Shown piece by piece: positions 15,189 to 39,708 of a stretch of 64,000 nt of DNA (position 1 is the stretch's first letter; each line of letters opens with the position of its first letter). Source of the stretch: Acidobacteriota bacterium (GTDB taxonomy: Bacteria > Acidobacteriota > JBCCFW01). A model generated the notes under the pieces. That model was given only the letters and a program-made list of their open reading frames with translations. It made no database searches and was not told the DNA's origin. Both the position numbers and the translations under genes were made by a program. Location of the stretch: the NCBI GenBank assembly GCA_039029535.1, contig JBCCFW010000004.1, forward strand, positions 41,512-105,511, in the 5' to 3' direction.

Positions 15189-15202
15189 GCAACCCGGACT
15201 CT

Positions 15203-15384: not shown

Positions 15385-15399
15385 AGTGTCCGGGTTTCG

Positions 15400-22367: not shown

Positions 22368-23170
22368 GGCTTGCGCGACTTGAGGATCTTGGCGGGGACG
22401 CCCGCGACGATGGAGTAGTCCGGGACGTCCTTGGTCACCACCGCGCCCGAGGCGACGATGCAGCCCTCGCCCACGGTCACGCCGTCGACCACCGCGGCCT
22501 GCGCGCCGATCCACGTGCCGTTTCCGATGGTGATCCCGCCGCGCAGGTCATGACCCTGCTGGCTGATGGGCACGTCGAGCCGGTCGTGGTTGTACATCGT
22601 GCCACCGAGGTAGACGTACGGCCCGAGCATGACGTCGTCACCGAGGACGAGCCGGTTGCCGTGGACAGCGTAGAGACCGCAGTAGGCGCCGATGCCGATG
22701 CGGCTGCCGTAGCTCATCGTGCCGTTCTTGCAGAGCATCAGCGTGCGCTGCCCGACGGTGACGTCGTCGCCGATCTCGATGGCCAGGTCGCCGTCGTTGC
22801 GCGCGTCGACGATGCAACCGTCGGAAATGATCAGGTTGCGGCCGGCGTGGATCTTGTTGGGGCTACGCAGGGTGACGCCGGGGCCGAACAGCGCTCCCTT
22901 GCCCACGCGACCGAGGAGGCCGGGGAAGAGCTTCTTCCGGAACATGAGACCGACCGCGCCGGGCATGTTCGCGCCGAGACCGTGGATGAGCTCGTACTTG
23001 ATCATCGAGCCCAGGCCGGTCGAGCCGACGATCAGCGCCTGGTACTTGGCCAGGGCCGACTTGGACTCGTCGTGGATCTGCGCGTGAACCTTCCGACTCT
23101 TCGCCGGCGGCGCCTCGGCCGGAGCGGTCTCGGTGGGCGGGTTGGCGGGCAGCTCGGGAGGTCCAGACAT
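22364..23170 (-). CDS. left-handed beta-helix (hexapeptide-repeat) acyl/acetyltransferase
   Basis: Start at the internal ATG at 23170 (MSGPPELP...). C-terminal hexapeptide repeats ([33 protein letters not shown]). Confidence 0.65.
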
Positions 23171-24455: not shown

Positions 24456-25466
24456 TCACGACGAGGTGCTGCCGATGAGGCCTCGCGTGACCTGACCGAG
24501 GAGGCTCCGTCGCTCGACCACCAGCGAGACGGTCCCCGTCATGCCCGTGGTGAGCTCCAGGCTCGCGGGCACGGGACCGAGCGACAGGTGGGCGCGGTAG
24601 TGGCCGGTCTCGTCGTCGACGCTGCTCACGGCGACGAGCGTGGCGGAGAGCGAGCCCTGGTCGAGCAGCGAGTCGGCATCGAGCCGGAGTCGGCCCTCTC
24701 CGAGCACGCGCTGGAGGAGCCCCACCTGTCGAGGCGCGATCGTCGCCGTCGCGTGGAAGACCGCGGTCGACTGGCCCTCGGCGGAGTCCGACACCAGCGC
24801 GTGCAGCAAGGTCCCCGCCGGAGCGCGGGAGCCGAAGGACAGGTGAGCGACCCGACCGGCCGTGGCCGCCGTGACGTCGAGGTGCGCGTCACCCTCGCTC
24901 ACCGCAGCATGAGGGCCGTAGCGCTCCCGCAGCAGCGCCTCGGCGCGGGCCAGCTCGAAGCCGAGGCGTCGGCGTCGAGCCTGCTGCTCGGTGCTCTCGG
25001 CCTCCAGCCAGGCGAGCTCGGCTCGTGCGGCGTGCAGGCGAGCCAGTGCTTCGGAGAGCTCGGCTGATCGAAGCCGAAGCAGCGGCTGGCCGAGGTCGAC
25101 GCGGTCTCCGATGACGACGTGTCGTGCGTCGATCACGACGTCCTCGAAGAGCGAGTAGCGGTGCTCTCCCTCCACGCGGACGAGCTCGACGGGGAGCTCG
25201 ACCGTCCAGTCGAGGGGGATGAGGGAGCCACCGGCGACCAGCGCCACGGCGAGGAGCAGGCCCAGGCGGAGGGCGACGCGTCGGGCGCCCTGCGTGACGT
25301 CGAGGAGAGGGGAGTCCTCCTCGCGGTAGAGCTCGGTCGACTGGAGCGCGGTGAGCTCTCCCTCGGGTCGGACCTCGCCCGGAGGCGGCGGCCCCTTGCG
25401 GAGTCGGTCCGTGAGATCGACGACGGTCGATCCGGTGCCGTTCGGCGGCGAGACGGGCTCAGGCAT
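24456..25466 (-). CDS. HlyD-family membrane fusion / secretion protein
   Basis: Start at the internal ATG at 25466 (MPEPVSPP...), which overlaps the ABC-transporter TGA (ATGCCTGA). TM segment followed by a coiled-coil. The ORF-track N-terminus is an out-of-frame low-complexity artefact. Confidence 0.65.
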   Translation of the reverse strand: MPEPVSPPNGTGSTVVDLTDRLRKGPPPPGEVRPEGELTALQSTELYREEDSPLLDVTQGARRVALRLGLLLAVALVAGGSLIPLDWTVELPVELVRVEGEHRYSLFEDVVIDARHVVIGDRVDLGQPLLRLRSAELSEALARLHAARAELAWLEAESTEQQARRRRLGFELARAEALLRERYGPHAAVSEGDAHLDVTAATAGRVAHLSFGSRAPAGTLLHALVSDSAEGQSTAVFHATATIAPRQVGLLQRVLGEGRLRLDADSLLDQGSLSATLVAVSSVDDETGHYRAHLSLGPVPASLELTTGMTGTVSLVVERRSLLGQVTRGLIGSTSS

Positions 25467-27657
25467 GGGCGAGATACGCGTTGGTGAGGCTGGCATAGAT
25501 GCCGTCGTGGGAGAGGAGCTGCTCGTGAGTGCCGTCCTCGACGATGCGACCGTCGTCGAGCACGACGATGCGGTCGGCCCCGCGGACCGTGGACATGCGG
25601 TGGGCGATCGTGATGATGGTGGCCTTGGGGAAGCGCTCGTGCAGCCGGGCGGTGATCCTCTGCTCCGACTCGGTGTCCAGGACGCTGGTCGCTTCATCCA
25701 GGAGGATGATCTCCGGGTCGGTGAGGAAGAGCCTTGCGAAGGCCAGCTTCAAGCGCTGCCCGCTCGACAGGTTCCTTCCACCGTCGCTGAGGACGAAGTT
25801 GAAGCCCAGGAAGTTGCGACGCAGGAAGTCGCCGAGCTCGGCGTCCTCCATCGCCTGCTCGAGCTGCTCGAGGCTGGCGTCGGGTCTCACCTGCTGGAGG
25901 TTCGAGCGGATGGTCCCGTGGAAGATGTAGATGTCCTGCGGCAGCATCACGACCGACTGCCGGAGGAGCTGGGGGTGGTACTGCCGGAGCTCCGTGTCGC
26001 CGAGGAAGATGTTGCCCTCGTACGGATGGAGCTGGAGCAGCAGCTTGGCGAGCGTCGACTTGCCCGAGCCGTTGCGGCCCACGATGGCGAGGTGGGTGCC
26101 GGCCTCGACCTCCAGGTCGACCTCGTCGAGCACGCGGTCCGCCTCCTTCTCGGAGTAGCGGAAGGAGAGCCCCTCGATCCTCAGGTCGCCGTCCGGTCGG
26201 GTCGTGCGCTGGCTGCCGACGTCGCGAAACTCCGGCTCCTGGCCGATGAGGTCGTTCAGACGCTCGAAGGTCACGCTGAGCCCCAGCAACATCAGCCAGA
26301 GGTCGCCGAGGCTTCCCGCGCGGCTCACGACCATCATGAAGATGCTCGTGAAGGCCACGTACTGTCCGATCGTGAGCTCGCCCTGGACGGTGAGGTACGC
26401 ACCGATCCAGTACACGGAAACCTGGCTCGCCACGATCAGGCCGGACTGGAGGAGCCCGAGGCGGAGCGTGGACGTCTCCAACTCCATCGTCGAGTTCAGC
26501 GAGCGCGTGAAGAGGTGTCTCCAGTTCCAGAGACGCTGTTGCTCGATCCCGAGGATCTTGACGGTGTTGATGCCGTAGAGCGTCTCGGTGAAGCTGCCCA
26601 TCGCGTGAACGTTCGAGTGAAAGACCTTGTTTTCCAGGCTCCGAAGGCGAGGCGTGAAGACTGCCGACACGATGGTGATCACCAACACGGCCGCCAGCGC
26701 CACCGTGGCGAGGAGGGGGCTGTAGAAGAAGAGGAAGGCCGAGTAGGCGACGACCAGGAGGATGTCGAGCAGGGACTCGAGCACCGCCGGTGACAAGATG
26801 CCGGAGACCGACGACGCCTCCTGCAGGCGGTTGATGAAGTCCTCCTTCGGGTGGTCGTCGAAGTAGGACTGCCGCAGCCGCACGAAGCGATCCATGACCG
26901 CTCCGAAGAACGATCGCTCGTAGCGAGCCTTGAGCTGGATCATGAGGACGTTGCGCAGGTACTTCAGCAGGAGCTGCGTCGAGTAGACGAGGACGAGACC
27001 GAGGAGGATGGCGTGCAACAGGCGCAGGTCGTCGTCGACCAGGACTCGGTCGATGATGCCCTGGGTCATGACCGGGAGCCCGAGCCCCAGCAACTGCAGG
27101 ACGACAGTGGCGAGCAGGAGCTCGGCGAGGACCTTGCGAGCGGCGAGCAGGGGCGGCAGGTAGAACTCGCGGAGGAGACCCCACTTGCGACCACGTCGCT
27201 CCTCGATGAGCTCGAGCAGGTCGGGGTTGCGGAAGGCGTCCTCCGTCGGATCGACGGTGAACACGACGCCGTTCCAGCGAGCATGGAAACGATCCTTGCT
27301 CAGCTCATGCTCGCCGCTTCCCGGATCGATGAAGGTGATGGTGTCGTCGCCGACTCGCGTGACGACGATGAAGTGATCTCCCTGGTAGTGGGCGATGAAC
27401 GGTGCCTGCAGGTCCTGCATGCCCTCCCAGGAGGCGTGGTAACCCATGGCCTCGAAGCCGAACTTCTGAACGACTTCGGCCGCGAGGTAGAGGTTGGTGC
27501 CCTGGGCGTCGACCTGCGCGAGCTCGCGCAGCAGGTCCTGCACGTTGGTCATGCCCCAGTAGCGGAAGATCATCGCCAGGCAGGTGGTCAGACACTCGGA
27601 GCCGTCCCGCTGGAGGATCACCGGTACCGAACGTCGAGGCTTGAGCTTCGGTCTCAT
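25459..27657 (-). CDS. bacteriocin/lanthipeptide-processing ABC transporter with N-terminal C39 peptidase domain (LanT-like)
   Basis: C39 peptidase motifs QRDGSECLTTCLAM and HFIVV. Six-TM domain. Walker A GRNGSGKST, signature LSSGQRLK and Walker B ILLDEATS. ATGA overlap with the LanB gene. Confidence 0.9.
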   Translation of the reverse strand: MRPKLKPRRSVPVILQRDGSECLTTCLAMIFRYWGMTNVQDLLRELAQVDAQGTNLYLAAEVVQKFGFEAMGYHASWEGMQDLQAPFIAHYQGDHFIVVTRVGDDTITFIDPGSGEHELSKDRFHARWNGVVFTVDPTEDAFRNPDLLELIEERRGRKWGLLREFYLPPLLAARKVLAELLLATVVLQLLGLGLPVMTQGIIDRVLVDDDLRLLHAILLGLVLVYSTQLLLKYLRNVLMIQLKARYERSFFGAVMDRFVRLRQSYFDDHPKEDFINRLQEASSVSGILSPAVLESLLDILLVVAYSAFLFFYSPLLATVALAAVLVITIVSAVFTPRLRSLENKVFHSNVHAMGSFTETLYGINTVKILGIEQQRLWNWRHLFTRSLNSTMELETSTLRLGLLQSGLIVASQVSVYWIGAYLTVQGELTIGQYVAFTSIFMMVVSRAGSLGDLWLMLLGLSVTFERLNDLIGQEPEFRDVGSQRTTRPDGDLRIEGLSFRYSEKEADRVLDEVDLEVEAGTHLAIVGRNGSGKSTLAKLLLQLHPYEGNIFLGDTELRQYHPQLLRQSVVMLPQDIYIFHGTIRSNLQQVRPDASLEQLEQAMEDAELGDFLRRNFLGFNFVLSDGGRNLSSGQRLKLAFARLFLTDPEIILLDEATSVLDTESEQRITARLHERFPKATIITIAHRMSTVRGADRIVVLDDGRIVEDGTHEQLLSHDGIYASLTNAYLAHA

Positions 27658-30600
27658 GGTGCGGGTACTTCGGCGGTGACGAGTGGACGTGGTGCCTGCT
27701 CTGCGCGTGAGCGGGCGGCTCGGGAGACGTGGAGTCGATCGAGGAAGTCGTGCAAGACCAACTCGTGGGCACGCTCATGCGAGCGGACGAGACGGTTCAC
27801 GAACATGTGGAGGTAACTGACCGCCAGCTCGGTCATGGACAGGTGGCCGGCCTGCTCGTGCGCTCGCAGGCTCGGCACGATCTCGGCGAGGGCGCGCGAC
27901 CTCTCCTGGAACACGGCCATCGCATCCTTGCCCACGGTGAGCTCGGGTGCATCCAGCGCGTGCTGGACGTGCCGGCGCTCCGAGCGGTAGCGGGCCCCGA
28001 GGGGCACCCGCAACGCCCGCTCACCACCGTGCTCTCGGAGGTAACCGGCCCGCATCGAGCGGATGACGTGGTGGCGGTCCTCGATGTCAGGTAGGAGGTC
28101 TTCGAGGAGTTGCTGGATGCCGACGAGAGCGAGGCGCCAGCGCAGGTCGGCTCCCGAGCTTCCGCGGGAGAGGGCGACGAGACGCAGCACGGCGTCCGAG
28201 TCGGCATGGAAGAGCCGTTCGGACAGCTCCATCCCGTGTCGGCCACCGTAGCGTTCGAGCTCACGCTCATAGGTGTCGAGCTGCACGCGCCAGGCCAGCC
28301 CGTTCCGCAGCGGCTCGCGGAGGGCGGCGTGGAGCTGAGGGACGACGTCCGTGAGCAGGCGTCCCGGCTCACCGTGGACGCGGAGACGCACGGTGGGGTC
28401 GGGGTCCTGGAGTCGGATGAAGAACCAGCGGTCCACGACACCGTCATGCATCCAGCGTTCGACCAGAGGTCGGACGACGTCGCAGAGGAGGTCGTCGGCG
28501 CTCGCCGGCCCCGTGAAGATCCGTGCGTAGAGCCACTCGGAACCGGGAGCGAAGGTCCGCTCGCAGCCCGACAGCTCGACGCGGGGGAGCGAGGGCTCGG
28601 GTGTCGGTTCGCGACGCAGTGTCATCGGTACGAAGAGCTCGTGAACGAAGTCACCCTCCGGTCCGGTGACGGGGAGGTCGTCGAAGCCCCCCCAGTGCTC
28701 GCGAAGAACGGCTTCGTCTTCGCGCAGTAGCAAGTCGAGCAAGCTGTCGACCATCAGCTCGTTGTCGAGATCGACGAGCAGCTCGGAGTCACCACTGCCG
28801 AAGACCACGAAGCGCGGCCAGGCGTGTCGGCGACGCCACTTCGTCAACAGTCGCGGTCGCTCGTCGGGTGCGGACGTCGAGAGTCGCCGCAGGTCGTGTT
28901 GGCTCAGGCGCCAGCGAGCGAGGGAGAGAACGGTGTTCCCGAGGCACACGCGGGGCAGCGATGGCTGGGCCTCGAGCGAGCCCCAGTTCCACTGGAGCCA
29001 GCCGGCGACTCCCTGGAACTGCAGGTCGCTGAGGAAGCGATAGACACCGAGCGTGTGCGAGTCGGCAGAGTGCGCCGTGGTCAATCGAGGGACGACTTCC
29101 TTTCCGAAACGTGCCGACCGCAGGACCACGCGGTCGTCGACGACGCTCACGAGCAGGTCATCGAGCGGAATCTGATCCTGGACCGGGGCCCCGGAACGCC
29201 CGAGGAAGGGAATCTCGTGCTTCCGAAACTGCGGGCGGTGCACGACGTTGCCGTCGCGTCCCTCGGGCACGTGAACGACCTCGGCGAAGGCGGCGTCGGG
29301 GCGGAGAGCCTCCTCGCGTGCGAGGTGCTCGGCGACGTGCTCTCGCAGCGTTGCATCCCCCGTGCAGAATCGACCGAGGAGCTGGGCTCCGGACGGGCCG
29401 ACGGCCCCCTCGAACAGGAACCGGGCGTGGTCGTCCTGCCCCGAGGGAGCGAGCCGGATGCCTGCGGTGAGCGCGTCGGGGAAGGGCGGGCTCTCGGGTC
29501 GACGCAAGGCGGCGACGTCCGCGTCGCTCAGCACGAGCTCGTCCGCTCCGGAGCGTCGCCAGCGTTCGAGGATCTCGTGCAGGACGATGTCACGCGAGCC
29601 CATCTCGAGCGCCGCTCGCCCCGTGCCCGCTTCGTCATCGAGAGGCAGCCCGGCCAGTAGCGGCGAACCCGAGCTGCTCGTGGAGGAGGAGTTGCCGTAG
29701 CCGATGCCGGCCTCTTCGTCGAGCGCCTGGACCAGGGGGATCTCTCGCTCTCCGTAGCGCTCGACGAACGCGTCCCGGAAGCGGCCTAGCTCGCGATCGT
29801 GATCGAAGTCGGAGGCACCACGCAGGAACTCGAGGACGTCGGCAAGCTGGCTCGTGACGTTTTCGGAGAGCGTGGCCTCAGGTGCCGACTTGATGAGCTC
29901 GAGGTGGACGAGCGCTCGGCCGGGCGTGGGCACCGAGAGCGTTTCCAGCGTGGGCGTTAGACGGGACAGGAGCAGGCCCGGGGACGGCGTGCCGTCCCTG
30001 CCGAGCTCCCCCAGCGCGTGGTTGAGGTCGACGAGGGCCTCGTGCCAGCGTCCGCCGCCCGCGTGTTCACCGACCTGAGCGGTCAGCTCATCGAGTGAGC
30101 TAGGACCGGTCAAGCAAGGACGGAGGTCCGGGACGAGGAGCTGCTCCCTCGCCAGCTCCTCGACGTACTCTTCCGCTTCCTCCAGGTCGACGTCGGCCTC
30201 CCGTGCGAGCGAGCGCGCGAGTCGTTCTCGGGTCTCACCACCGCGCGCGTGCTCGAGCGCGGCGTCGAGGAACGGGGACGGCTCGAAACGGACGAGATGA
30301 TGGGCGCGGTTGCGGTCGCTGCCCTGGGCCTGAATGACACCGAGCTTGCCCGCGACGCGATGGAGGGTGGAGCTCGGCCGCAGCTTCGTCGTGGACACGA
30401 GCTCTGGAGCAGTGGCGAGCGCCTCGGCGATCTCCTGCACGACTGCTGCGTCGAGACGGACGTGGAGACGATGACGCGACGTCTCCGCAAGACGCAGGTT
30501 CGTTTCATCGCCGACGCGGACGACGGCGTGACCCGCGAAGAGTCCGAAGGGTGTCGCCCGCGAGGTCATGCGGGTCAGGTAGCGGACCAGCGAGCGCTCC

Positions 30601-30857
30601 ACGGCGCGACCCTGACGACTGTCCGGAGCGCGACGCCAACCTGGCAGCTCCGCGTGCAGGCTCGGCGAGGCAAGTGCGATCGCCGTGTCCACGTCTTCGC
30701 GATCGATGAACGCCGCGAGTCGATCTCGGAGCTCGCTTCGGTCGGATGAAGGAGCGTCGCCGCACCACTCCCTGAGCTCCCGGAGCGCATGTGCTGGCGT
30801 CCTCAGCACGGCGAAGCCCGAGCTTTCGAGGACGGGAGAGCGTTCCGAGGTCTTCAT
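27654..30857 (-). CDS. class I lanthipeptide dehydratase (LanB-like, glutamylation plus elimination domains)
   Basis: 1067 aa, the typical LanB size, with the N-terminal motif TPFGLFAG. ATGA overlap with the LanC gene. Confidence 0.8.
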   Translation of the reverse strand: MKTSERSPVLESSGFAVLRTPAHALRELREWCGDAPSSDRSELRDRLAAFIDREDVDTAIALASPSLHAELPGWRRAPDSRQGRAVERSLVRYLTRMTSRATPFGLFAGHAVVRVGDETNLRLAETSRHRLHVRLDAAVVQEIAEALATAPELVSTTKLRPSSTLHRVAGKLGVIQAQGSDRNRAHHLVRFEPSPFLDAALEHARGGETRERLARSLAREADVDLEEAEEYVEELAREQLLVPDLRPCLTGPSSLDELTAQVGEHAGGGRWHEALVDLNHALGELGRDGTPSPGLLLSRLTPTLETLSVPTPGRALVHLELIKSAPEATLSENVTSQLADVLEFLRGASDFDHDRELGRFRDAFVERYGEREIPLVQALDEEAGIGYGNSSSTSSSGSPLLAGLPLDDEAGTGRAALEMGSRDIVLHEILERWRRSGADELVLSDADVAALRRPESPPFPDALTAGIRLAPSGQDDHARFLFEGAVGPSGAQLLGRFCTGDATLREHVAEHLAREEALRPDAAFAEVVHVPEGRDGNVVHRPQFRKHEIPFLGRSGAPVQDQIPLDDLLVSVVDDRVVLRSARFGKEVVPRLTTAHSADSHTLGVYRFLSDLQFQGVAGWLQWNWGSLEAQPSLPRVCLGNTVLSLARWRLSQHDLRRLSTSAPDERPRLLTKWRRRHAWPRFVVFGSGDSELLVDLDNELMVDSLLDLLLREDEAVLREHWGGFDDLPVTGPEGDFVHELFVPMTLRREPTPEPSLPRVELSGCERTFAPGSEWLYARIFTGPASADDLLCDVVRPLVERWMHDGVVDRWFFIRLQDPDPTVRLRVHGEPGRLLTDVVPQLHAALREPLRNGLAWRVQLDTYERELERYGGRHGMELSERLFHADSDAVLRLVALSRGSSGADLRWRLALVGIQQLLEDLLPDIEDRHHVIRSMRAGYLREHGGERALRVPLGARYRSERRHVQHALDAPELTVGKDAMAVFQERSRALAEIVPSLRAHEQAGHLSMTELAVSYLHMFVNRLVRSHERAHELVLHDFLDRLHVSRAARSRAEQAPRPLVTAEVPAP

Positions 30858-32173
30858 GACGTCGCCTCAGCGCACGGAGAAGACAGGAGCAGGATCGCGT
30901 CCCAGGCTGGTGCGATCGAAGTCGTCGCCGCGAGAAGGGCGAGCGCGATGCCGGAGGCTCCGTTGAGGAAGCCGCTGTCGTCGTGCCATGCGAGTCGGCC
31001 GTCATCGCCTCGGTCCCAGGCGCGGTAGCCAGCAACGCCGGTTCCCGGGTGCTGCATGTCGAGTGCGAGCTCGAACCAGCGTCGTGCCGCGTCGGCCATC
31101 ACGTCGTCGCCCGTTGCATGCCAGAGGCGGTTGAACACGTGGCCGATGCCGGAAGCACCGTGGCACAGGGCGGCGTCCTCCACGCCGCTGCTCTCGCGGG
31201 TCCGCGCTGCCGCGCGTCGAGCGATCACACGCGCCTCGAGCTCCCAGTCCTGCCGGCCCGTGGCGCGCGCTGCCTGGAGCAGGACCACGCTGATGCCGAG
31301 CTCGCCGTGGCACCAGGCGAGACGAGCTGGGAGCTCATCCCTGCCGTCTCCCATGTCGTAGGGGAACACGGCGTCGGCATCGTCTTCGAGCTTGCGAGCG
31401 AGCAACCAGCTCACCGCTCCGTCGAGCAGGACGAGGGCACGGTCGCGCTCGATGTCGGCACGCACCAGCGCGCTCAGCAGGGCGGCGATTCCGGCGACGC
31501 CGTGGGCGACTCCGACACAATAGGTACCGCCGTTCGCGACGGCGTGTTCTGATGGCACCAGGTCGTTGCTCGTGAACCAGGCGAGGCCGTCGCCATGCTC
31601 CACGGCGAGCGTCTCGAGGTGGCCGAGCATCGAGCGCAGGCACGAGAACGCGCTCTCTCGAGGAAGTCGCGACAGCGCGTGGGCGCCGAAGCCGACGAGG
31701 CCTTCCACGAGGTCGTGATGATGGGGCCATGTCTCTCGCGAGAGATGTTCCGCCAGCGCGAGGTCGACGACCTCGCCGGGATCCGGAATGTCATCGAGAC
31801 CCGAGACGCGGTGAGCGAGCTGGCTCATGACGTGATCGCGGGCCCAGGCAACACCGACGAAGCCACAGTAGAGGGAGGCGGACATGGGGGTCTCGGCGAG
31901 CGCCACCACCGAACGCTCGAGTCTCGTCGCGACGGCATCTCCTGCCACCAGGCCGGGTCGAGCTGCCGAGAGATACGCGAGGGTGAGCGCGCGACCTGCA
32001 TTGCCGTCGGCCAGTGATTCGTCATCGGGACGCAATGTCGGCTCGGACAGGAGGGCGTCTGCGAGGTCACCGAGGGCGACGTTGGCTCGGACGGCGAGGT
32101 CGCCCTCCAGGACGGGAGTCCACGTGGCTGGAGTCGGGGTCGTTCGCGTTCGGCTAGCGCTGAGTGAGGTCAT
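30854..32173 (-). CDS. lanthipeptide cyclase (LanC-like)
   Basis: LanC zinc-site motifs VAHGVAGIAALL, AWCHGELG and ALCHGASGIGHV. Start assigned to the internal ATG at 32173, which is preceded by AGGAGA at 7 nt. The ATG at 32209 abuts the hairpin. Confidence 0.85.
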   Translation of the reverse strand: MTSLSASRTRTTPTPATWTPVLEGDLAVRANVALGDLADALLSEPTLRPDDESLADGNAGRALTLAYLSAARPGLVAGDAVATRLERSVVALAETPMSASLYCGFVGVAWARDHVMSQLAHRVSGLDDIPDPGEVVDLALAEHLSRETWPHHHDLVEGLVGFGAHALSRLPRESAFSCLRSMLGHLETLAVEHGDGLAWFTSNDLVPSEHAVANGGTYCVGVAHGVAGIAALLSALVRADIERDRALVLLDGAVSWLLARKLEDDADAVFPYDMGDGRDELPARLAWCHGELGISVVLLQAARATGRQDWELEARVIARRAAARTRESSGVEDAALCHGASGIGHVFNRLWHATGDDVMADAARRWFELALDMQHPGTGVAGYRAWDRGDDGRLAWHDDSGFLNGASGIALALLAATTSIAPAWDAILLLSSPCAEATS

Positions 32174-32212
32174 GCCCGGTCTCCTGGTTGGTCGGGGTGA
32201 GTGGTGCATGGA

Positions 32213-32243
32213 GCGTCCGGACCGGCATCGTCGGTCCGGACGC
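32213..32243 (-). terminator. perfect 12-bp stem-loop (GCGTCCGGACCG-N7-CGGTCCGGACGC) between precursor A and lanC; probable attenuator or processing hairpin
   Basis: Perfect inverted repeat read directly. No U-tract follows, so partial termination or transcript stabilisation is more likely than full termination. Confidence 0.5.
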
Positions 32244-32259: not shown

Positions 32260-32460
32260 CTAGAGCCCGAAGTCCTCGCCGGTCTCGGCCTGGCGTGCGC
32301 TACCGCATCCCCGCTTCTTGCACTTCGTGCAGCCACAGGTGCTCTTGCGCTTGCTCTTCGGGACCGCCACGCCGCCCTGCACGTCCTGCAGCTCGTCGGC
32401 GTCGAGCTGGCGGAGGGTGTCCTTGTTCAGCACGAGCTTCTTCACGTTGTTCTTGGTCAT
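32260..32460 (-). CDS. RiPP precursor peptide A (double-glycine leader; polycationic Cys/Ser/Thr-rich core)
   Basis: 66 aa: MTKNNVKKLVLNKDTLRQLDADELQDVQGG / VAVPKSKRKSTCGCTKCKKRGCGSARQAETGEDFGL. ATG at 32460 preceded by AGAGGAAG. Leader has hydrophobic residues at -4, -7, -12, -15 and ends in GG. Confidence 0.85.
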   Translation of the reverse strand: MTKNNVKKLVLNKDTLRQLDADELQDVQGGVAVPKSKRKSTCGCTKCKKRGCGSARQAETGEDFGL

Positions 32461-32550: not shown

Positions 32551-32579
32551 CCTGTACAGCTCCTCGTGCGGGACCTGAC
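32551..32579 (-). promoter_or_regulatory. conserved cis motif GTCAG-N15-CTGTACAGG, copy upstream of precursor A (about 90 nt from the ATG)
   Basis: One of four copies with identical 15-nt spacing (also 32949-32977, 36365-36393, 38731-38759). Confidence 0.5.
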
Positions 32580-32640
32580 ACGCCACCAAGCTAGTCCCGC
32601 TCGTCTCCTCGTCCTGGGAGGAGTGAGCGGAGACGCAACG

Positions 32641-32665
32641 CTCGGACCGCGGCCGCCGGTCCGAG
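32641..32665 (-). terminator. stem-loop CTCGGACCG-N7-CGGTCCGAG immediately downstream of precursor B
   Basis: Perfect 9-bp stem. Shares the CGGACCG...CGGTCCG core with the hairpin after precursor A. Confidence 0.45.
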
Positions 32666-32684
32666 CGCCACCGAGCTCACTCGA

Positions 32685-32864
32685 TCAGGCGCCGCCGCGG
32701 CAGAACCGCGACTTGCCCTTCTGGCAGCTGCAGGTCGACTTCCGCTTGGTCCCCTTGCGCTTCGGGACCGCCTCGCCTCCCTGCACGTCCTGCAGGTCGT
32801 CGGCGTCGAGCTGGCGGAGGGTGTCCTTGTTCAGGCTGAGCTTCTTCACGTCGTTGTTGCTCAT
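32685..32864 (-). CDS. RiPP precursor peptide B (paralog of A)
   Basis: 59 aa: MSNNDVKKLSLNKDTLRQLDADDLQDVQGG / EAVPKRKGTKRKSTCSCQKGKSRFCRGGA. ATG at 32864 preceded by GAAGGAA. Leader DNA is ~90% identical to precursor A while the cores diverge. Confidence 0.85.
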   Translation of the reverse strand: MSNNDVKKLSLNKDTLRQLDADDLQDVQGGEAVPKRKGTKRKSTCSCQKGKSRFCRGGA

Positions 32865-32948: not shown

Positions 32949-32977
32949 CCTGTACAGTCAGCCGTTCGGAACCTGAC
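32949..32977 (-). promoter_or_regulatory. conserved cis motif GTCAG-N15-CTGTACAGG, copy upstream of precursor B (about 84 nt from the ATG)
   Basis: See 32551-32579. Confidence 0.5.
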
Positions 32978-32986: not shown

Positions 32987-34354
32987 TCAGGGCGTGACCG
33001 TCGCTCGGTGCTGTCCGCTTCGTGTCGCTGGCTGATCGAGGAAGCAACGAAGGAAGTACGGAGCACCATCGCGCAGCTCCCAGCGCGACGTTGGCACGCA
33101 GCGCTTCAGCTCTCGCCAGCGGCCGATGGCGAGATGCAGCGGTGCCAGCCACTCGGCGAGACGGAGGGTCTCGGCCAACTCCTCCGGTGTCGCGAACCCT
33201 CGCCAAGGCCCCAGGTAGGCTGCAAGCACTCGCGCTCGCAACTCCGGCGGCTCGCCATCGAGCAGGCCGGTGAAGGGGGTGAGGAAAGGATGGCTGAGCG
33301 TCGCGTCGGTCCAGTCGAGGATCGCGGGCTGACCATCGCGCTCGCAGAGATTGCCCAGATGAAAGTCGCCGTGCTCGAGCCCGCTGGGTCCGAGGAGTGC
33401 CAGGCGCCTACAAGCGTCGACGAGGTCTCCGCGGAGAGACGCGAACACGTCGAGCTCGGTTGCGGTGAGCCCGAATCGACCGAAGGTGACGGTCTCGGTT
33501 TCGTGCAGCAGTGAGTCGACTTGCTCTGGGAGTAGGTCGATGGCGGCTTCCGGCAGCCTGAGCGTGCGGAGCTCGTGTTCGTTCTCCAGGAGCGCGCGTT
33601 GCATCGTCGCGAGCGTGGCGGCCGCCTGGCAGGCGGCGTCTGTTCGAGAGAGTGTCGAGACGAGCGGATCGCCGAGCGAGCGTGTCAAGAACCAACCCCG
33701 GGATCGGTCATGGGCGATCAGCTCGGGAACGCGCCCGGGGCAGCGTGCGGCGAGGCAGCGGAGGAGAGCGGCCTCGCGTGTCGAGCTTGGCCCGACCATC
33801 TTGAGGTACGTGGTGCCGGCGTCGGTCTCCAACATGACGACGGCACCACCGGAGTCGGACTTGAGCGACTGAGCCTCGAGCACCGGCCGTTCCAGAGCGA
33901 CCTCGGCCCAGTCGATGGCCTCGTCCAGCCAACCTCGTCGCTGCCACGGCGCGAGGGTGACCGCTTCTCGCTCCGCCTCTTGGAGGCATTGACTCACGAC
34001 TGCGACGTGAGTTTCGTCGGCGAGATCCGCTCGAGCCAGCTCCTCCTCGGCCCACCATCGACTCTCGGCGGTGGCTCCGGTGCGGTGCCCGACGACGTGG
34101 TACACGTGGAACCGTTCGCCGGTCTGCAAGAACTCCGTTCCGGCTGCCACGACCTCCCGTGAGAACTGAGAGCGGACGCCGTGCCGTACCAGAAGCCAGT
34201 CCGTGACGTCCTGGACCTCGGGCTCGTCGTCGTTGTCGAACTCCACGGCAGGAAGGGTCCAGCCCTCACCGCTTCGGACGAGCAAGACCCTTGGCAGCGT
34301 GTCGTGGAGCAGGAGTGAGCAGAGTCGGGTGCGCCTTGCTCGCGGGCTACTCAC
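32987..34354 (-). CDS. aminoglycoside-phosphotransferase (APH)-family kinase with N-terminal ~150-aa extension
   Basis: Brenner catalytic motif HGDFHLGNL and downstream ILDWTDA (Mg-binding D). GTG start 13 nt after the JmjC stop. Confidence 0.7.
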   Translation of the reverse strand: MSSPRARRTRLCSLLLHDTLPRVLLVRSGEGWTLPAVEFDNDDEPEVQDVTDWLLVRHGVRSQFSREVVAAGTEFLQTGERFHVYHVVGHRTGATAESRWWAEEELARADLADETHVAVVSQCLQEAEREAVTLAPWQRRGWLDEAIDWAEVALERPVLEAQSLKSDSGGAVVMLETDAGTTYLKMVGPSSTREAALLRCLAARCPGRVPELIAHDRSRGWFLTRSLGDPLVSTLSRTDAACQAAATLATMQRALLENEHELRTLRLPEAAIDLLPEQVDSLLHETETVTFGRFGLTATELDVFASLRGDLVDACRRLALLGPSGLEHGDFHLGNLCERDGQPAILDWTDATLSHPFLTPFTGLLDGEPPELRARVLAAYLGPWRGFATPEELAETLRLAEWLAPLHLAIGRWRELKRCVPTSRWELRDGAPYFLRCFLDQPATRSGQHRATVTP

Positions 34355-34367
34355 GACGCGATCCCGT

Positions 34368-35558
34368 TCAGTGAACCTGCTGGCCGGCGTCTCGCTGGAG
34401 CGCGCCTTCCTTCAGCAGGTAGGCGAGGGTGAGCTCGACGAGATCCGGCGCGACGCTCGAGCACGCCGCGCGGGCGTCCTGAGCGGTGAAGGCGCTCGGG
34501 CGGTCGACGAGCCACTGCACCAACGGGAGCAGCTCGGTGTCGACCTCGATCTCCGCCCCCGCGTTCGGACGCCTGACACGGAGCTTCCAGTTGCTTCCTC
34601 GAACGCCCTCGTCCCGCAGCGACTTCGACGCGTCTGCCGGCCAGTGGAAGCGCTCGCCCGAGACGCTGGCGCTCTGCAGCAGTGACTCGGCGTCGAGCCC
34701 ATCGACCACCCGAGCGAGATCGGGAAGCAAGGTGGCGAGCTCGCGCGCGAGCCGTGCCCGGGAGCGCTCGTCTCCGGCGAGTCCGAGGGGGTAGGCCCGC
34801 CACTCCGCCAGGTTTCCGAGGCGGCGGTCGAGCTCCTCGAGCACGACGTTCTTCCAGGTCGGAGGTTGCACGGTGAAGTTGAGCGCGAAGGACTCACCGG
34901 CGACACCGGTCTCGTGCCAGACCCCGCGAGGGAGGAACATGACGCTTCCCTCCCTCAGCTCGACGGTCTCGGAGTTGCGTGGCATCCGACGAGGGAGCGG
35001 CCGACGTGCGTGCGGTGGGCCGTGGTCGTCCGTGGCCTTCGCGTGGTAGCTCTCGGTCGGGTTCACGACGTGGTGATTCGGCGCGAGACGCCAGGTCTTG
35101 GTTCCCCTGAGCTGCACGTTGAAGTTCACGTCGAAGTCGTAGTGCATCGGCACGCCCAGGCTGCGCTTCGAGGCAAATGCCTCGATGGAGACGTGGTCTG
35201 GATGGACTCCGAGGTCGGCGGCGAGCTCGGCCCGGGGGGAGCGCAGCTCGGGCACCGCGTTCTCGACGTTCGTGATGTAGAGCGTGTCGCCGCGCTCGTA
35301 GAGGTCGCGAGCGGTCGCGGCAGGGACCTCGGTCTGGAATCCCTTGTCGCCGAAGATGGTCACGGGCTTGCGGAGTCTTCCGAGCAGGACTCCGAGGTCG
35401 CGCATGGCGGGTAGGGTCGCGAGCAACCCGAGGCGGTCGACGGCGCCGTGGCCCACGTGACTGACTTCGGGCCAGTGCTGCCGGAGGAAGTCACGCTTGG
35501 GCATGCCGAAGAGGGTCCGCAGTCCGAGCTTCTTGTCAGTCGAGCCGTCTCGTCTCAT
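34368..35558 (-). CDS. JmjC/cupin-4 family Fe(II)/2-oxoglutarate-dependent hydroxylase
   Basis: HxD...H facial triad context (VPMHYDFDVNFNVQLRGTKTWRL ... FLPRGVWHET). Start at ATG 35558 with a GGAGAAG SD. Confidence 0.65.
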   Translation of the reverse strand: MRRDGSTDKKLGLRTLFGMPKRDFLRQHWPEVSHVGHGAVDRLGLLATLPAMRDLGVLLGRLRKPVTIFGDKGFQTEVPAATARDLYERGDTLYITNVENAVPELRSPRAELAADLGVHPDHVSIEAFASKRSLGVPMHYDFDVNFNVQLRGTKTWRLAPNHHVVNPTESYHAKATDDHGPPHARRPLPRRMPRNSETVELREGSVMFLPRGVWHETGVAGESFALNFTVQPPTWKNVVLEELDRRLGNLAEWRAYPLGLAGDERSRARLARELATLLPDLARVVDGLDAESLLQSASVSGERFHWPADASKSLRDEGVRGSNWKLRVRRPNAGAEIEVDTELLPLVQWLVDRPSAFTAQDARAACSSVAPDLVELTLAYLLKEGALQRDAGQQVH

Positions 35559-35589
35559 GTCTCTTCTCCGTCGTGTGGTTCGTGGCGCT

Positions 35590-36321
35590 TCAGGACGCGA
35601 TGTCGGATTGGTCGAGGTGGATGACGCCGGCACGCGAGGCTGCGTGGCGACCGAGGTCCCGGCGGAGCTCGATGGGGTCGAAGGCGGAGCTCTGGCGACC
35701 GTCTCGCATGCCGCGAGGCCGCCGGTCCCACCAGTTGACGAGGAAGGTCACGCGGATGGAGCCGGCGACGTCACCGGGGTAGATCGCGTGATAGAGATGA
35801 CCCGGGAACACGGTGTAGTGATTCGAGCGGGGGAGCACGGCGACGCCGCGTGTCGGGCTGGGCGGCGAGAGCGTCTTGCCAGAGGGGTCACAGCCTTGAT
35901 CGACGATGAGCGTCGGGCCGCCGTTGCGACCCAGGTAGAACACGGACGCGACGAGCGGGTGCACCATCCGTCCCGTGTCTTCGAAGAGCTGTTCGTCCTT
36001 GTCGAAGTGAAAGCTCTTTCCGTCGGTCGTGTCTCGAACCTGGAACCACCACTCCGCTCCGATGCAACTCGGTCCCGGCCGCGCCAGCCGTCGAAGCCGT
36101 CGAATGGCGTGCTCGGGCAGGGTCGACGGTGCGCGGTCGAGCGGGTACCAACCACCCGCCCGTGAGAGCTCGTTCCGCGCGCCCCGGCGGAGGGTGCGAC
36201 GGACGTGCTCGGCGAAGCGGCGATACAGGGTCGACGGCAGCGCCGAGCGGAAGCAGCGCGTGCTCGTCACGTCGGCTCGGTGACGGGAGCGGGGCTTTTC
36301 GGCGAGGGCTCGTGACGACAT
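35590..36321 (-). CDS. putative Fe(II)/2-oxoglutarate oxygenase (prolyl-4-hydroxylase-like fold)
   Basis: HFDKDE (HxD), ~55 aa later HYTVFPGHLYH, then IRVTF (RxS/T-like). ATG 36321 with a GGAG SD. Confidence 0.45.
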   Translation of the reverse strand: MSSRALAEKPRSRHRADVTSTRCFRSALPSTLYRRFAEHVRRTLRRGARNELSRAGGWYPLDRAPSTLPEHAIRRLRRLARPGPSCIGAEWWFQVRDTTDGKSFHFDKDEQLFEDTGRMVHPLVASVFYLGRNGGPTLIVDQGCDPSGKTLSPPSPTRGVAVLPRSNHYTVFPGHLYHAIYPGDVAGSIRVTFLVNWWDRRPRGMRDGRQSSAFDPIELRRDLGRHAASRAGVIHLDQSDIAS

Positions 36322-36364: not shown

Positions 36365-36393
36365 CCTGTACAGCGCAGCGGTCCAGCTCTGAC
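36365..36393 (-). promoter_or_regulatory. conserved cis motif GTCAG-N15-CTGTACAGG, copy upstream of the oxygenase/JmjC/kinase unit (about 43 nt from the ATG)
   Basis: See 32551-32579. Confidence 0.5.
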
Positions 36394-36402: not shown

Positions 36403-38673
36403 TCAAGCCGACGGAGCGATGGGCATGAGCAACGCTTCGTCCCAGGTGGGCTCGTCGAGGCTGACGGCCGAGAGCAACCCGAGAACGACGCCCGAGCGTC
36501 CATCGAGCAGGCCGTTGCCGCTCAGACGTGGAGGCGTGTCGTCGGTGGGCAGGGCGAGGGTCACGGCGTGGTCGAGCCACGTTCGCGCTGCCTGCTCGAG
36601 TGAGGGGTGACCGAGGGCTCGATGCAGGCGATTGAGGGCCTGGGCGACGCCGATGGCTCCGTGGCAGGCAGAGGCCGTGTCGATGCCGGCCGACTCCGCC
36701 GAACGAGTGGCGGCGTGGAGCGCGATGTCGAGGGCGAGAATCTCCCAGCTCGACTCTCCGATCGAGCGAGCAGCCGAGAGCAGTGCGAGCGCGATCCCGA
36801 GGTCTCCCGAACACCACGATGGGCGCGACGGGGTCGGTGTCGCCCAGCCGACGAATGACGGGAATCGAGACGCCGAGCCCGGAGGAAGCTCCCGGTCGAG
36901 GAGCCACTCGATGCTCTCGAACAACAGCTCCCGTGCGGAGCCCGGTGGCTCGTCGAGCGCGCAGGCCCGGGAGAGCAGTGCGACGACGCCCGCCATCCCG
37001 TGCAGCACGCCGAGGTCGCGACGTCCCCCGCGGAAGACATGAGGTGCCTCGGGTGCGTGGCGCATGAGCGCGAGAGACCAGTCCCGCGAGCCGTTCACGA
37101 GCGAGGCCTGGTCGAGCCGCTCGATCACGTCCTCAATGAGGCTTCGTGCCGACGCACGTGACCGGCGCTCGAGGGCATGAACGCCGATCCCGACGAGCCC
37201 GCCGCGGAGATCCAACCGCCCGGTCCAAGCCTGTGAGGCGAGCGTGTCCGCGAGGGTGGCGTCGACGTCCTCCAGGCCGTCGGCTTCGTGCAGGCTCGCT
37301 TCCGAGAACCGCGAGGCGACCCACGCGACACCGGTGAAGCCGTCGTGGAGACCGATGCCCAGCGGACGCTCGGCGACTGCTTCGAGCGCGACATCGAGCC
37401 ATCGCGACGCCAGGTCGTCGTGAGCCGAGTCGATGCCGGCGCGCGCCAGCTCGAGATGGCAGAGCGCACGGCCGGCCGCACCGGTCGCCAGGGAAGCGTC
37501 GACGGACCCGGCGTCGACCGAGACGTCGGGCTCGGAGACCAGCTCGTCGGACAAGCGGGCGATCGCGTCCCAGGTCGTCTCTGCTTCCTGGCCGACGAGG
37601 AGTGGTTGCCACCCTGAGACGGGAGAGGGGCTCATCGCAGCCGGGGATGGCACGACGTCGAGCCGGGCTGCGCCGTCGCTTGGGCCTCTCGCCGTCGGTT
37701 CGAGCTCGAGCACGTGGAAGGCCCGGCAGGCGATCGGCTCGGCGCCCAGCCGCTCTGCAAGACGGAGGGTGTGTCGGTAACCGGAGAGGTGGCAGTTGGT
37801 GTCGAACCACGTGCGGGTCGCGCCTTGCTCCGCCGCACGCTCGGCGACCGCCGAAAGGAGGAGCGCGTGAATTCCCGTCCTCCTCATGTCCGGCAGGATC
37901 TCCTCGTACTCGGCGTGAACGTGCGGCCCCTTCCGGAACGCGAGCAGCACGCCGACGGCGCGGTCGTTCACGCGTGCGACGACCGAGAGGTCGCGGAGCG
38001 CGCGGTAGTCCTCGCTCAGGAGCCAGGTGCGGAAGTCGTCGCCCTTCCGGCCCAGCACGACGTGAAACAGCGACTCGAGCGAGGCGTCGGGGTCGTCCGG
38101 GAGTGGGCCGAGGCTCAGGCCGTCCGGGAGCGTTCGCCGACGGGCGATGCGCTCGCACAGCGTCGCGACGTGGGCACGGAAGTCTCCGAGGTCCACGTCG
38201 AAGCTGGCTTGCTCGAGGTCGCGGGAGAAGCCCTGCTCACGGAGGAAGGCGACGGCTCCGGGCTCCGTCGGCTGCGTCACTTCGAGAGACGTGACTCCGG
38301 CGGCCCGACCGTCCTCGCGCAGCCGCTCGAGGAGGATGCTGCCGACACCGCGCCGACGGGCGCCCTCGGCGACACGCAGCAACAGGGGCACGCGCTCGCC
38401 GACGTCGCCCCAGTAGCGAACACCGCGCGCCGCGGCGCCGACCGGTCGGCCCCCTGCTTCCGCGATGAGCAGGCCCGGCGCCCACGGGCCCAGCGGTCCG
38501 AGGTGCTCCGCGAGTTGGGCCCAGTCGGGTCGTTCCTCGAAGAGCTCCGGCAGGAGCTCTCGGAGAACGTCGGAATCGGAGCCGGTGGCTTGCCGGACTC
38601 GAATCCCCGGTTCGGCCGGTGGGATCGAGTCCGACCACGTGGTCGCTGCCTGCGTCTCGGACCTGCCCTGCAT
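36403..38673 (-). CDS. fusion protein: tandem GNAT acetyltransferase-like domains plus C-terminal LanC-like cyclase domain
   Basis: N-terminal ~330 aa with GNAT-like segments (RRRGVGSILLERL). C-terminal LanC motifs GVLHGMAGVVALL, SWCSGDLG and SACHGAIG. ATG 38673 preceded by GGAGGAAC. Confidence 0.75.
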   Translation of the reverse strand: MQGRSETQAATTWSDSIPPAEPGIRVRQATGSDSDVLRELLPELFEERPDWAQLAEHLGPLGPWAPGLLIAEAGGRPVGAAARGVRYWGDVGERVPLLLRVAEGARRRGVGSILLERLREDGRAAGVTSLEVTQPTEPGAVAFLREQGFSRDLEQASFDVDLGDFRAHVATLCERIARRRTLPDGLSLGPLPDDPDASLESLFHVVLGRKGDDFRTWLLSEDYRALRDLSVVARVNDRAVGVLLAFRKGPHVHAEYEEILPDMRRTGIHALLLSAVAERAAEQGATRTWFDTNCHLSGYRHTLRLAERLGAEPIACRAFHVLELEPTARGPSDGAARLDVVPSPAAMSPSPVSGWQPLLVGQEAETTWDAIARLSDELVSEPDVSVDAGSVDASLATGAAGRALCHLELARAGIDSAHDDLASRWLDVALEAVAERPLGIGLHDGFTGVAWVASRFSEASLHEADGLEDVDATLADTLASQAWTGRLDLRGGLVGIGVHALERRSRASARSLIEDVIERLDQASLVNGSRDWSLALMRHAPEAPHVFRGGRRDLGVLHGMAGVVALLSRACALDEPPGSARELLFESIEWLLDRELPPGSASRFPSFVGWATPTPSRPSWCSGDLGIALALLSAARSIGESSWEILALDIALHAATRSAESAGIDTASACHGAIGVAQALNRLHRALGHPSLEQAARTWLDHAVTLALPTDDTPPRLSGNGLLDGRSGVVLGLLSAVSLDEPTWDEALLMPIAPSA

Positions 38674-38730: not shown

Positions 38731-38759
38731 TCAGGACAGTGCAGGGCCAAGAACCTGAC
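38731..38759 (-). promoter_or_regulatory. conserved cis motif variant GTCAG-N15-CTGTCCTGA upstream of the GNAT-LanC gene (about 57 nt from the ATG)
   Basis: Same 15-nt spacing, and its GTCAGGTTC matches copy B. The 3' block is degenerate (CTGTCCTGA vs CTGTACAGG). Confidence 0.4.
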
Positions 38760-39213: not shown

Positions 39214-39708
39214 CTAGTTCATCCACTTGTCGAGCCAACCGGTGTCGATGCTGACCGAACCGGAGGCCGAGCCGCCGACGGTGCCGGGCTTCGTGCCGCT
39301 GACGCCGGTGTTGTTGCGGTTGGCCGCCTGGCCGGGGGCCGAGCCGCCGCCGCCCATGCCGCTGCCGACACCCATGGTGTTGCCGGCCGAGCGACGACGA
39401 ACCGCGTCGTAGACGGCGGAGGCGTCGATGGTGCCGCCACGGATGTTGCCGACCGTGCCGCCCACGCCGCCGGCGACCTGCTCGAGCATGTCGTCGGAGA
39501 GCTCTTCCGCGCTGGCCATGCGGGCCTTCAGGGCCTCACGGAGACCGGACGCGTCCTCGGCCGAGAAGGCGAAACCGTGCTTGCCAGCGACCTCGGCGAC
39601 GGAGGTGTCGACGTCCGCCGCCTCCTCGAGGGTGCGGTTCAGCTCATCCCGCAGGCCTTCGTCCTGACAGGCTTTGTTGAAGAACTCCAGGGCCTTTTCC
39701 GTGCTCAT
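39214..39708 (-). CDS. Nif11-type leader RiPP precursor peptide with Cys-free Gly/Ser/Thr-rich core
   Basis: 164 aa. Leader MSTEKALEFFNKACQDEGLRDELNRTLEEAADVDTSVAEVAGKHGFAFSAEDASGLREALKARMASAEELSDDMLEQVAGG matches the Nif11 leader family (ends LSDDMLEQVAGG). Core GTVGNIRGGTIDASAVYDAVRRRSAGNTMGVGSGMGGGGSAPGQAANRNNTGVSGTKPGTVGGSASGSVSIDTGWLDKWMN. SD GGAGGAAG. Confidence 0.8.
   Translation of the reverse strand: MSTEKALEFFNKACQDEGLRDELNRTLEEAADVDTSVAEVAGKHGFAFSAEDASGLREALKARMASAEELSDDMLEQVAGGVGGTVGNIRGGTIDASAVYDAVRRRSAGNTMGVGSGMGGGGSAPGQAANRNNTGVSGTKPGTVGGSASGSVSIDTGWLDKWMN

Follow-up and report, generated by a model that had tools for sequence, protein, structure and literature searches.

Fe(II)/2-oxoglutarate (2OG)-dependent oxygenases and JmjC hydroxylases are already known from gene clusters for peptides that are made on ribosomes and modified after translation (RiPPs), and APH-family kinases have likewise been described, both in clusters for class V lanthipeptides and thioamitides and among the enzymes of resistance to non-ribosomal peptides. 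Among the hydroxylases, the YxbC-like JmjC enzyme CzlI hydroxylates a Phe of curacozole to Tyr (PMC11575548), BipG catalyses the gamma-hydroxylation of ornithine in biphenomycin after arginase action (PMC12707348), and JmjC proteins with RRE-like domains have been found in RiPP-like contexts (PMC12710340). Among the kinases, the APH-family LanK proteins (CaoK, LxmK) and TvaC act on precursor hydroxyls in lanthipeptide-type clusters (PMC9486802), and ComG of the corramycin cluster phosphorylates the hydroxyl of a hydroxylated residue, by which the cationic peptide antibiotic is inactivated and self-resistance is conferred (PMC10996006). Salivaricin 10, a class II lantibiotic, keeps a phosphate at pThr4 in its mature form (PMC10235938). 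Here, we analyse a stretch of 64,000 nucleotides (nt; hereafter the window) from the metagenome-assembled genome of an uncultured Acidobacteriota bacterium (contig JBCCFW010000004.1 of assembly GCA_039029535.1, positions 41,512 to 105,511 of the forward strand), in which three neighbouring genes (the trio), encoding a 243-amino-acid (aa) oxygenase resembling prolyl-4-hydroxylases (P4H), a JmjC hydroxylase and an APH-family kinase, lie inside a class I lanthipeptide cluster. The salivaricin phosphate, which is carried by Thr in a class II peptide, is reportedly installed by the LanM synthetase, whereas in the window, where the cluster is of class I, the APH-type kinase has a gene of its own. 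To our knowledge, class I lanthipeptides do not use separate APH-type kinases, and their immunity is normally provided by LanI/LanFEG. The literature searched contained no description of a separate APH-type kinase in any class I lanthipeptide cluster, of a NUDIX-fold/APH fusion in any RiPP cluster, of the P4H-like/JmjC gene pair, or of the common element GTCAG-N15-CTGTACAGG described below.

We identify the locus as a class I lanthipeptide cluster whose set of tailoring genes is unusual. For the interpretation that we favour, the chances stand at about even: the trio would be a tailoring and self-protection sub-operon of this cluster, co-regulated with the precursors through a shared cis-element, and the kinase would O-phosphorylate the peptide, most probably in the manner of ComG. 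In this scheme, LanB and LanC would form the thioether rings, and the P4H-like and JmjC enzymes would hydroxylate side chains of the cationic cores; candidate sites are the conserved Pro4 of the AVPK motif common to the precursors A1 and A2 and the Lys or Arg residues, as suggested by the fold relatives of the two enzymes and by the preference of BipG for a primary-amine side chain. The kinase would transfer the phosphate of ATP to a hydroxyl group of the peptide, most probably as a ComG-like inactivation or self-protection step (or as a pro-drug, charge-masking step), and Ser/Thr dehydration would be left to LanB. We infer the substrates, the sites, the order of the reactions and the physiological role of the phosphorylation. 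A ComG-like inactivating or charge-masking role is weakly favoured over a structural modification, because the nearest relative is a self-resistance enzyme, the other relatives behave as independent genes for resistance or detoxification would, and the cluster genes scanned include no immunity gene of the LanI/LanFEG type. Either a hydroxylate-then-phosphorylate route or an immunity role of the kinase is plausible.

The trio consists of three minus-strand open reading frames (ORFs) of 243, 396 and 455 aa, the last of which occupies positions 32987-34354 and encodes a two-domain protein:

35590..36321, minus strand: 243-aa Fe(II)/2OG oxygenase with a predicted prolyl-4-hydroxylase-like double-stranded beta-helix (no Pfam or NCBIfam model; AlphaFold2 (AF2) and Foldseek)
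34368..35558, minus strand: 396-aa YxbC-like JmjC/cupin Fe(II)/2OG hydroxylase (matches to JmjC_2, Cupin_8 and YxbC)
33950..34354, minus strand: N-terminal NUDIX-fold domain of the kinase (approximately residues 1-135), Nudix box degenerate
32987..33949, minus strand: APH/choline-kinase-fold phosphotransferase domain of the kinase

The 396-aa gene starts with ATG at 35558 and the kinase gene with GTG, and the intergenic gaps around the trio are, in order, 81, 31, 13 and 122 nt, with the 31- and 13-nt gaps lying within it. The gene calls of NCBI and Logan are identical in length to these ORFs. A recheck of the ORFs reproduced the coordinates, strand, start codons and gaps of the first-pass annotation, and its three enzyme assignments (2OG-type oxygenase, JmjC hydroxylase and APH-like kinase) hold by Pfam and by AF2 with Foldseek. 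The GC content at third codon positions (GC3) is uniform across the trio, and the codon composition of the kinase gene is that of its neighbours. All three proteins match, with 100% identity, NCBI entries ('MAG: ... [Acidobacteriota bacterium]') from a 112-kb contig; the trio was also recovered, with its gene order unchanged, on a 3.9-kb Logan contig that had been assembled separately from run SRR22824298, and its linkage is therefore not a binning artefact. Along the minus strand, the genes follow one another in the order Nif11 precursor, GNAT-GNAT-LanC fusion, 243-aa oxygenase, JmjC hydroxylase, kinase, A1, A2, LanC, LanB, C39-ABC exporter and a weakly HlyD-like protein. The tight operon-like packing, the RiPP context (here class I lanthipeptide) and the Lys/Arg-rich cores that had been proposed at the outset were all borne out. 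The two precursors that follow the kinase gene are as follows:

32685..32864, minus strand: precursor A1, leader MSNNDVKKLSLNKDTLRQLDADDLQDVQGG, core EAVPKRKGTKRKSTCSCQKGKSRFCRGGA, NF038153 (lant_leader_L1a)
32260..32460, minus strand: precursor A2, core VAVPKSKRKSTCGCTKCKKRGCGSARQAETGEDFGL, NF038153

Both precursors score 30.3 bits against NF038153 (class I leader L1a, cut-off 22), and both leaders terminate in a GG cleavage site. Lys and Arg together make up 34% of the A1 core and 25% of the A2 core, and the cores hold 5-6 Ser/Thr and 3-4 Cys residues, in agreement with class I precursors.

The connection between the trio and the precursors is visible in the intergenic regions. The element GTCAG-N15-CTGTACAGG occurs in exactly three copies with 0 mismatches in the 64 kb, all of them intergenic and all on the minus strand, which is the coding strand:

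36365..36393, minus strand: motif copy 1, in the 81-nt gap that separates the 243-aa gene from the GNAT-LanC gene, ending 43 nt before the ATG of the former
32949..32977, minus strand: motif copy 2, beginning 10 nt past the stop codon of the kinase gene and ending 84 nt before the ATG of A1
32551..32579, minus strand: motif copy 3, ending 90 nt before the start codon (ATG) of A2

Exact copies precede the 243-aa gene, A1 and A2, and the earlier proposal of a motif copy upstream of the trio that is shared with other genes is thus confirmed. At up to two mismatches (<=2), chance would yield 0.30 matches, and none of 100 shuffles reached three; the palindromic core CTGTACAG alone has 3 occurrences against 0.18 expected, all at the three motif sites. 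Judged from the DNA, this layout fits one transcription unit co-regulated with the precursors, with the motif as a candidate promoter or operator. It is not a canonical sigma-70 promoter, since a scan with the sigma-70 consensus found no promoter in the region, and it was not found in the 114 related loci searched. Between the stop codon of the kinase gene and motif copy 2, no significant hairpin or RNA structure was detected. After the stop codons of A1 and A2, perfect GC-rich core stems of 10 bp (32640-32666, z score -1.6) and 12 bp (32213-32243, z score -4.7) are found on the minus strand; they are longer in the predicted folds, and no such structure follows the kinase gene. An attenuator-like stem after lanA genes is a classic arrangement. 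In addition, a degenerate fourth motif copy (GTCAGGTTC...CTGTCCTGA, 3 mismatches) is located at 38731-38759 on the minus strand, 58 nt upstream of the start of the GNAT-LanC gene, and has the extended GTCAGGTYC in common with copies 2 and 3; matches with three mismatches are at chance level in the window (6 versus 4.1 expected).

The kinase matches PF01636 (APH) with 49.9 bits (cut-off 23.2) over residues ~136 to 455, and its catalytic core is intact, with the ATP-binding K185, E194 of helix C, the loop H328-G-D330...N335 and the metal-binding D347-W-x-D350. In the AF2 model (predicted local distance difference test score, pLDDT, 84), the N-terminal domain adopts the alpha/beta/alpha sandwich of the NUDIX fold. 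The Nudix box GX5EX7REUXEEXGU with its catalytic glutamates is not retained: the alignment places DWLLVRHG in the position of REUXEEXG, and across the kinase family only a Gly in this region is near-invariant. No Pfam match was obtained for the N-terminus at E<=10. The region had been described previously as an uncharacterised N-terminal domain of ~150 aa; it is indeed a separate domain, and its fold can now be named.

By both sequence profile and fold, ComG (PDB 8AGY) is the closest characterised relative of the kinase. The family profile, when searched against PDB sequences, reached ComG first (E 8.6e-8) and did not reach LxmK, and both LxmK and TvaE are mid-rank matches by fold. ComG and the capreomycin and viomycin kinases Cph/Vph share with the window kinase the APH fold and a position in the producer's own gene cluster. 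On the other hand, ComG is only 18% identical to the window kinase, has no NUDIX-like N-terminal domain and acts on a product of a non-ribosomal peptide synthetase/polyketide synthase (NRPS/PKS) pathway, whereas the candidate substrate of the window kinase is a ribosomal lanthipeptide. Similarly, the LanK proteins and TvaC are APH-family members in lanthipeptide-type RiPP clusters, but the window cluster has no HopA1-like phospho-Ser/Thr lyase as the partner (LanY, TvaD) of the class V or thioamitide kind and has a LanB dehydratase. The idea put forward in the first-pass annotation that the kinase may be an immunity enzyme gains some support here, as its nearest characterised relative is the corramycin self-resistance kinase. 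The kinase is acidic, as its relatives are; net charge and isoelectric point (pI) were considered as a clue to a cationic substrate and were set aside, because they do not discriminate between the window protein and the rest of its family.

The 243-aa protein gave no Pfam or NCBIfam match even at E<=10, and its profile matched no PDB sequence. Among the relatives retrieved by a word-indexed search (n=8), an alignment of 8 sequences shows H105, D107, H178 and R190 to be invariant. The AF2 model (pLDDT 82, predicted template modelling score 0.79) is a double-stranded beta-helix, in which H105 and D107 follow the strand 102-105, H178 lies on the strand 176-180 and R190 lies on the strand 189-198. 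Foldseek against the PDB returned 302 matches at E<=1e-3, and those listed are all 2OG-dependent oxygenases, led by the Pseudomonas putida P4H (4J25 and 4IW3; for 4J25, probability 1.0 and E 2e-7) and human PHD2. The P. putida enzyme (PPHD) and PHD2 have the same beta-helix, the HxD...H triad and the Arg of the eighth strand that would bind the C5-carboxylate of 2OG; the 243-aa protein differs from them in its 12-21% identity, in TM-scores of 0.42-0.64 and in lacking a Pfam P4H match. According to this model, the 243-aa protein belongs to a genuine, unannotated family of Fe(II)/2OG oxygenases with a P4H-like fold. A profile search of 1.84 billion cluster representatives returned 4468 family members at E<=1e-3 and 473 at E<=1e-30. 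Some of them (P0026, P0036 and P0064) are fused to FemAB/Acetyltransf_6 domains or to Thioredoxin_6 domains resembling protein disulfide isomerase, and some family genes neighbour Fem/GNAT genes (L006, 8692-10693; L007, 3541-10645). A link between the family and Fem/GNAT proteins, for which the P0026 fusion and the L006 and L007 loci were considered, was rejected for the window, where the GNAT region has no detectable similarity to the Acetyltransf_6 protein of L006.

The 396-aa protein matches JmjC_2 with 42.9 bits (cut-off 22) and Cupin_8 with 38.5 bits (cut-off 27.4), and it aligns over 280 residues with Bacillus subtilis YxbC (7ZCC, 1VRB; E 4e-26). The residues H139, D141, K154 and H215 are invariant among its relatives; H139, D141 and H215 align to the YxbC triad, and K154 is the 2OG-binding Lys. 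A check of the facial triad had been named beforehand as a way to refute the assignments, and the triad proved to be conserved in both oxygenases (H139/D141/H215 in the JmjC protein; H105/D107/H178, together with R190, in the 243-aa protein). The C-terminal 107 aa were searched for an RRE/PqqD-like domain and gave no Pfam match at E<=10. In common with CzlI and BipG, the window enzyme has the JmjC/cupin fold, an HxD...H triad aligned with that of YxbC and a place beside a precursor inside a RiPP cluster. It differs in belonging to a class I lanthipeptide cluster with Lys/Arg-rich cores, in having an extra C-terminal region of ~100 aa and in being partnered by a second, P4H-like oxygenase.

A scan of one genome per species yielded 25 loci with JmjC relatives. 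One of them, in Paraliomyxa miuraensis SMH-27-4 (L014; NZ_JAOVZF010000164.1, 3679-17007), is itself a class I lanthipeptide cluster with JmjC genes: it contains an L1a-type precursor (leader MDQNKKKKLTLDTQTVRRLTKDELNNVRGG-, core LAIEDADVDAACSYSRTCADSKGGTARRCRN), which was detected by its tblastn similarity to A1 and A2, as well as LanC, LanB, two arginase-family proteins, two JmjC proteins and one protein containing a HAD-hydrolase domain. By analogy with biphenomycin, this cluster looks like a case of Arg to Orn to hydroxy-Orn tailoring on a lanthipeptide. The window cluster lacks an arginase, unlike both the biphenomycin cluster and that of Paraliomyxa. Furthermore, a metagenomic JmjC relative adjoins a Lant_leader_dom gene, in a Hyalangium locus (L012), JmjC occurs together with YcaO and a C39-ABC exporter, and the short-form JmjC locus of Streptomyces, the only one of its kind with annotated neighbours, lies inside a PKS/NRPS cluster. 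These findings strengthen the case for YxbC-like JmjC enzymes as a recurring element of RiPP tailoring. In a deltaproteobacterial metagenome-assembled genome (L023, 7748-11062), a JmjC homologue (38% identity) follows in tandem the genes for a Ser/Thr protein kinase of the Hanks type and an unknown protein of 277 aa; this is a second adjacency of kinase and JmjC, although with a different kinase family, and it may be due to chance.

The comparison of loci also shows which part of the trio is recurrent. Genes for a 243-like protein and a JmjC protein are adjacent in three independent loci, namely the window, L008 and L116/L117. In L008 (1334-4821), a 54-aa small ORF (MAKKIAAPKNTDRKGVKLTKAEQEKLKAGLVASSATSTARVSAGTEASYSKRCW), the 243-family gene, the JmjC gene and a gene for a flavin adenine dinucleotide (FAD)-dependent amine oxidase follow in this order, and the locus may represent a hitherto overlooked RiPP-like operon that is organised around this oxygenase pair. 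In L116/L117, there is a 14-nt overlap between the two genes, and the JmjC fragment shares 44% identity with the window protein. Another member of the 243-aa family adjoins a C39-ABC/HlyD exporter and a Gly-rich peptide with a GG leader. The recurrent unit is the oxygenase pair and not the trio, and both hydroxylases look like genuine peptide-tailoring enzymes.

For the kinase, the comparative evidence is of a different kind, and several observations weigh against our favoured interpretation. A word-indexed search returned 12 relatives and a metagenome scan 177, for which 80 loci (550 kb) were fetched. In tblastn searches, in which the ABC exporter was also queried, none of the 80 loci contained LanB, LanC, JmjC, the 243-aa family or an L1a precursor. 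Neighbour clustering gave no recurring neighbour family, any one being shared by at most five of 70 loci (<=5/70), and no kinase homologue was present in any JmjC or 243-family locus. The link between the kinase and the peptide rests on adjacency at a single locus. A cytoplasmic kinase is also an odd immunity device for a peptide that is exported and activated by a C39-ABC transporter. Regarding the hydroxylases, many JmjC homologue loci are not RiPP-like and several have no biosynthetic context, the 243-aa family is large and mostly without a RiPP link, and the 243-aa protein has a strongly basic character (pI 10.9, net charge +15), which is unexpected for an enzyme that would bind a core of +9. 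Its closest relatives, the JmjC-paired P0014 and P0015, whose downstream neighbour is not JmjC, are also unusually basic.

These contexts bring forward the possibility that the kinase is not directed at the peptide at all. It would then belong to a stand-alone NUDIX-APH family of soil bacteria with a small-molecule substrate (a metabolite or a foreign antibiotic), it would be merely resident in the cluster or recently inserted, and only the oxygenases would tailor the peptide. Family members do occur in unrelated and non-recurring contexts, for example, next to sugar epimerases and a 2-oxoacid dehydrogenase; three contexts inspected singly are unrelated to peptides, the two plasmid matches are kinase-domain-only proteins, and the sole annotated record among them (Nostoc) has an unrelated context. 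By identity, the window protein is an ordinary member of the family (26-32% to its relatives, which are mutually 28-48% identical except for two close groups at 74-86%), and its acidity is family-typical. The first-pass annotation had named, as a refuting outcome, homologues restricted to aminoglycoside-resistance contexts without RiPP association; the lack of RiPP association was indeed found, and the contexts (three look-ups, 80 loci and two plasmids) are not those of aminoglycoside resistance. On the other hand, the kinase gene is separated from the JmjC gene by 13 nt with no terminator between them, and the promoter-like motif of the precursors begins 10 nt past its stop codon, on which grounds we assign it to the pathway; in addition, its GC3 is like that of its neighbours, and its nearest characterised relative, ComG, acts on a peptide antibiotic. 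We regard a role as a mere neighbour as unlikely, with perhaps one chance in several of being correct.

A biosynthetic route is the second alternative. Here, the oxygenases would install a hydroxyl (e.g., 5-hydroxy-Lys or hydroxy-Pro) that the kinase phosphorylates, and the phosphate would be retained in the mature peptide or serve as a leaving group. The genes of the trio are translationally close and preceded by one upstream motif, and Lys, Arg and Pro are abundant in the cores. The human hydroxylysine kinase HYKK is a member of the APH family. ComG offers a precedent for phosphorylation of a hydroxylated peptide residue (PMC10996006), and salivaricin 10 with its pThr is a known mature phosphorylated lantibiotic (PMC10235938). 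However, no conserved co-occurrence of oxygenases and kinase was found elsewhere in the loci examined, the oxygenase pair of L008 is followed by an FAD amine oxidase and not by a kinase, the cluster has no lyase or phosphatase partner, and an added phosphate would counter the cationic character of the peptide; we hold this route to be doubtful. A combined version is conceivable, though we would not expect it: Lys or Pro of the cores would be hydroxylated by the pair, the new hydroxyl would be phosphorylated by a kinase drawn from the stand-alone NUDIX-APH family, the phosphate would mask charge reversibly, as a pro-drug or immunity switch, and the dead NUDIX domain would recognise the peptide; if true, it would give the first ribosomal peptide bearing a phospho-hydroxy-amino acid.

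Two further alternatives fare much worse. In a class V or thioamitide-like role, as known for the APH-family LanK and TvaC (PMC9486802), the kinase would phosphorylate precursor Ser/Thr for dehydration, either in the Cys-free Nif11 peptide or at residues skipped by LanB; genes for another type of precursor and for another LanC lie nearby, but a Pfam scan of every ORF from 24.4 to 40.5 kb found no HopA1-like lyase, the cluster has a full-length LanB, and LxmK and TvaE rank only in the middle of the fold matches, on account of which this role, including the class III-V-style Ser/Thr activity suggested earlier, was rejected as very improbable. Finally, a target-modifying self-resistance, in which the hydroxylases and perhaps the kinase alter the producer's own ribosomal protein or EF-Tu (cf. 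YcfD/L16 and P. putida P4H/EF-Tu), can hardly be credited: the best fold match of the strongly basic 243-aa protein is the EF-Tu prolyl hydroxylase (4IW3) and one source labels a JmjC relative as an L16 3-hydroxylase, but the JmjC family recurs across RiPP and PKS/NRPS clusters with different products, and the YxbC-like enzymes characterised from RiPP clusters have the precursor peptide as their substrate (PMC11575548, PMC12707348).

If the kinase acts on the peptide, as in the ComG-like interpretation that we favour, the locus would reveal either a new RiPP modification, namely O-phosphorylation of an enzyme-installed hydroxyl, or a new immunity or pro-drug logic for lantibiotics that parallels ComG and Cph. 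If it is no more than a neighbour, what remains is an ordinary, if nicely decorated, lanthipeptide cluster. The kinase aside, a conserved pair of Fe/2OG oxygenases is defined, one of which comes from a large family without a Pfam model, and the pair together with the YxbC-like JmjC enzymes offers useful handles for genome mining and for the late-stage hydroxylation of Lys-, Arg- or Pro-rich peptides.

The remaining genes of the cluster complete its class I machinery and add a second type of precursor:

30854..32209, minus strand: LanC cyclase (PF05147, E 4e-33; LANC_like 115 bits)
27654..30857, minus strand: full-length LanB dehydratase (Lant_dehydr_N 471.7 bits, Lant_dehydr_C 217.9 bits)
25459..27657, minus strand: C39-peptidase ABC exporter, which would cut the GG leader (domain scan)
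36403..38673, minus strand: GNAT-GNAT-LanC fusion of 756 aa, directly upstream of the trio (Acetyltransf_1, Acetyltransf_6 and LanC)
39214-39708, minus strand: Nif11-leader precursor of 164 aa

The protein at 24456-25697 was considered as a hidden lyase and discarded, since only weak HlyD-like signals were obtained, and the PADLOC defence models gave no matches. Approximately 2 kb past the exporter end of the cluster, a protein with the transmembrane region of lysyl-phosphatidylglycerol synthase (PF03706, MprF-type) is encoded at 21306-22514 on the minus strand. Proteins of the MprF type protect against cationic peptides, and this one could be an alternative immunity candidate. The GNAT-GNAT-LanC fusion is the second cyclase of the cluster, with WCxG and CHG zinc-ligand motifs visible in its sequence, and it has a weak match to the RiPP N-acetyltransferase HaaN (E 7e-4). 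The Nif11 precursor has a core of ~80 aa after ...VAGGVGG that is rich in Gly, Ser, Thr and Asn and contains no Cys, and its gene has its own strong terminator, a hairpin with a T-tract at 39157-39121 (z score -6.3).

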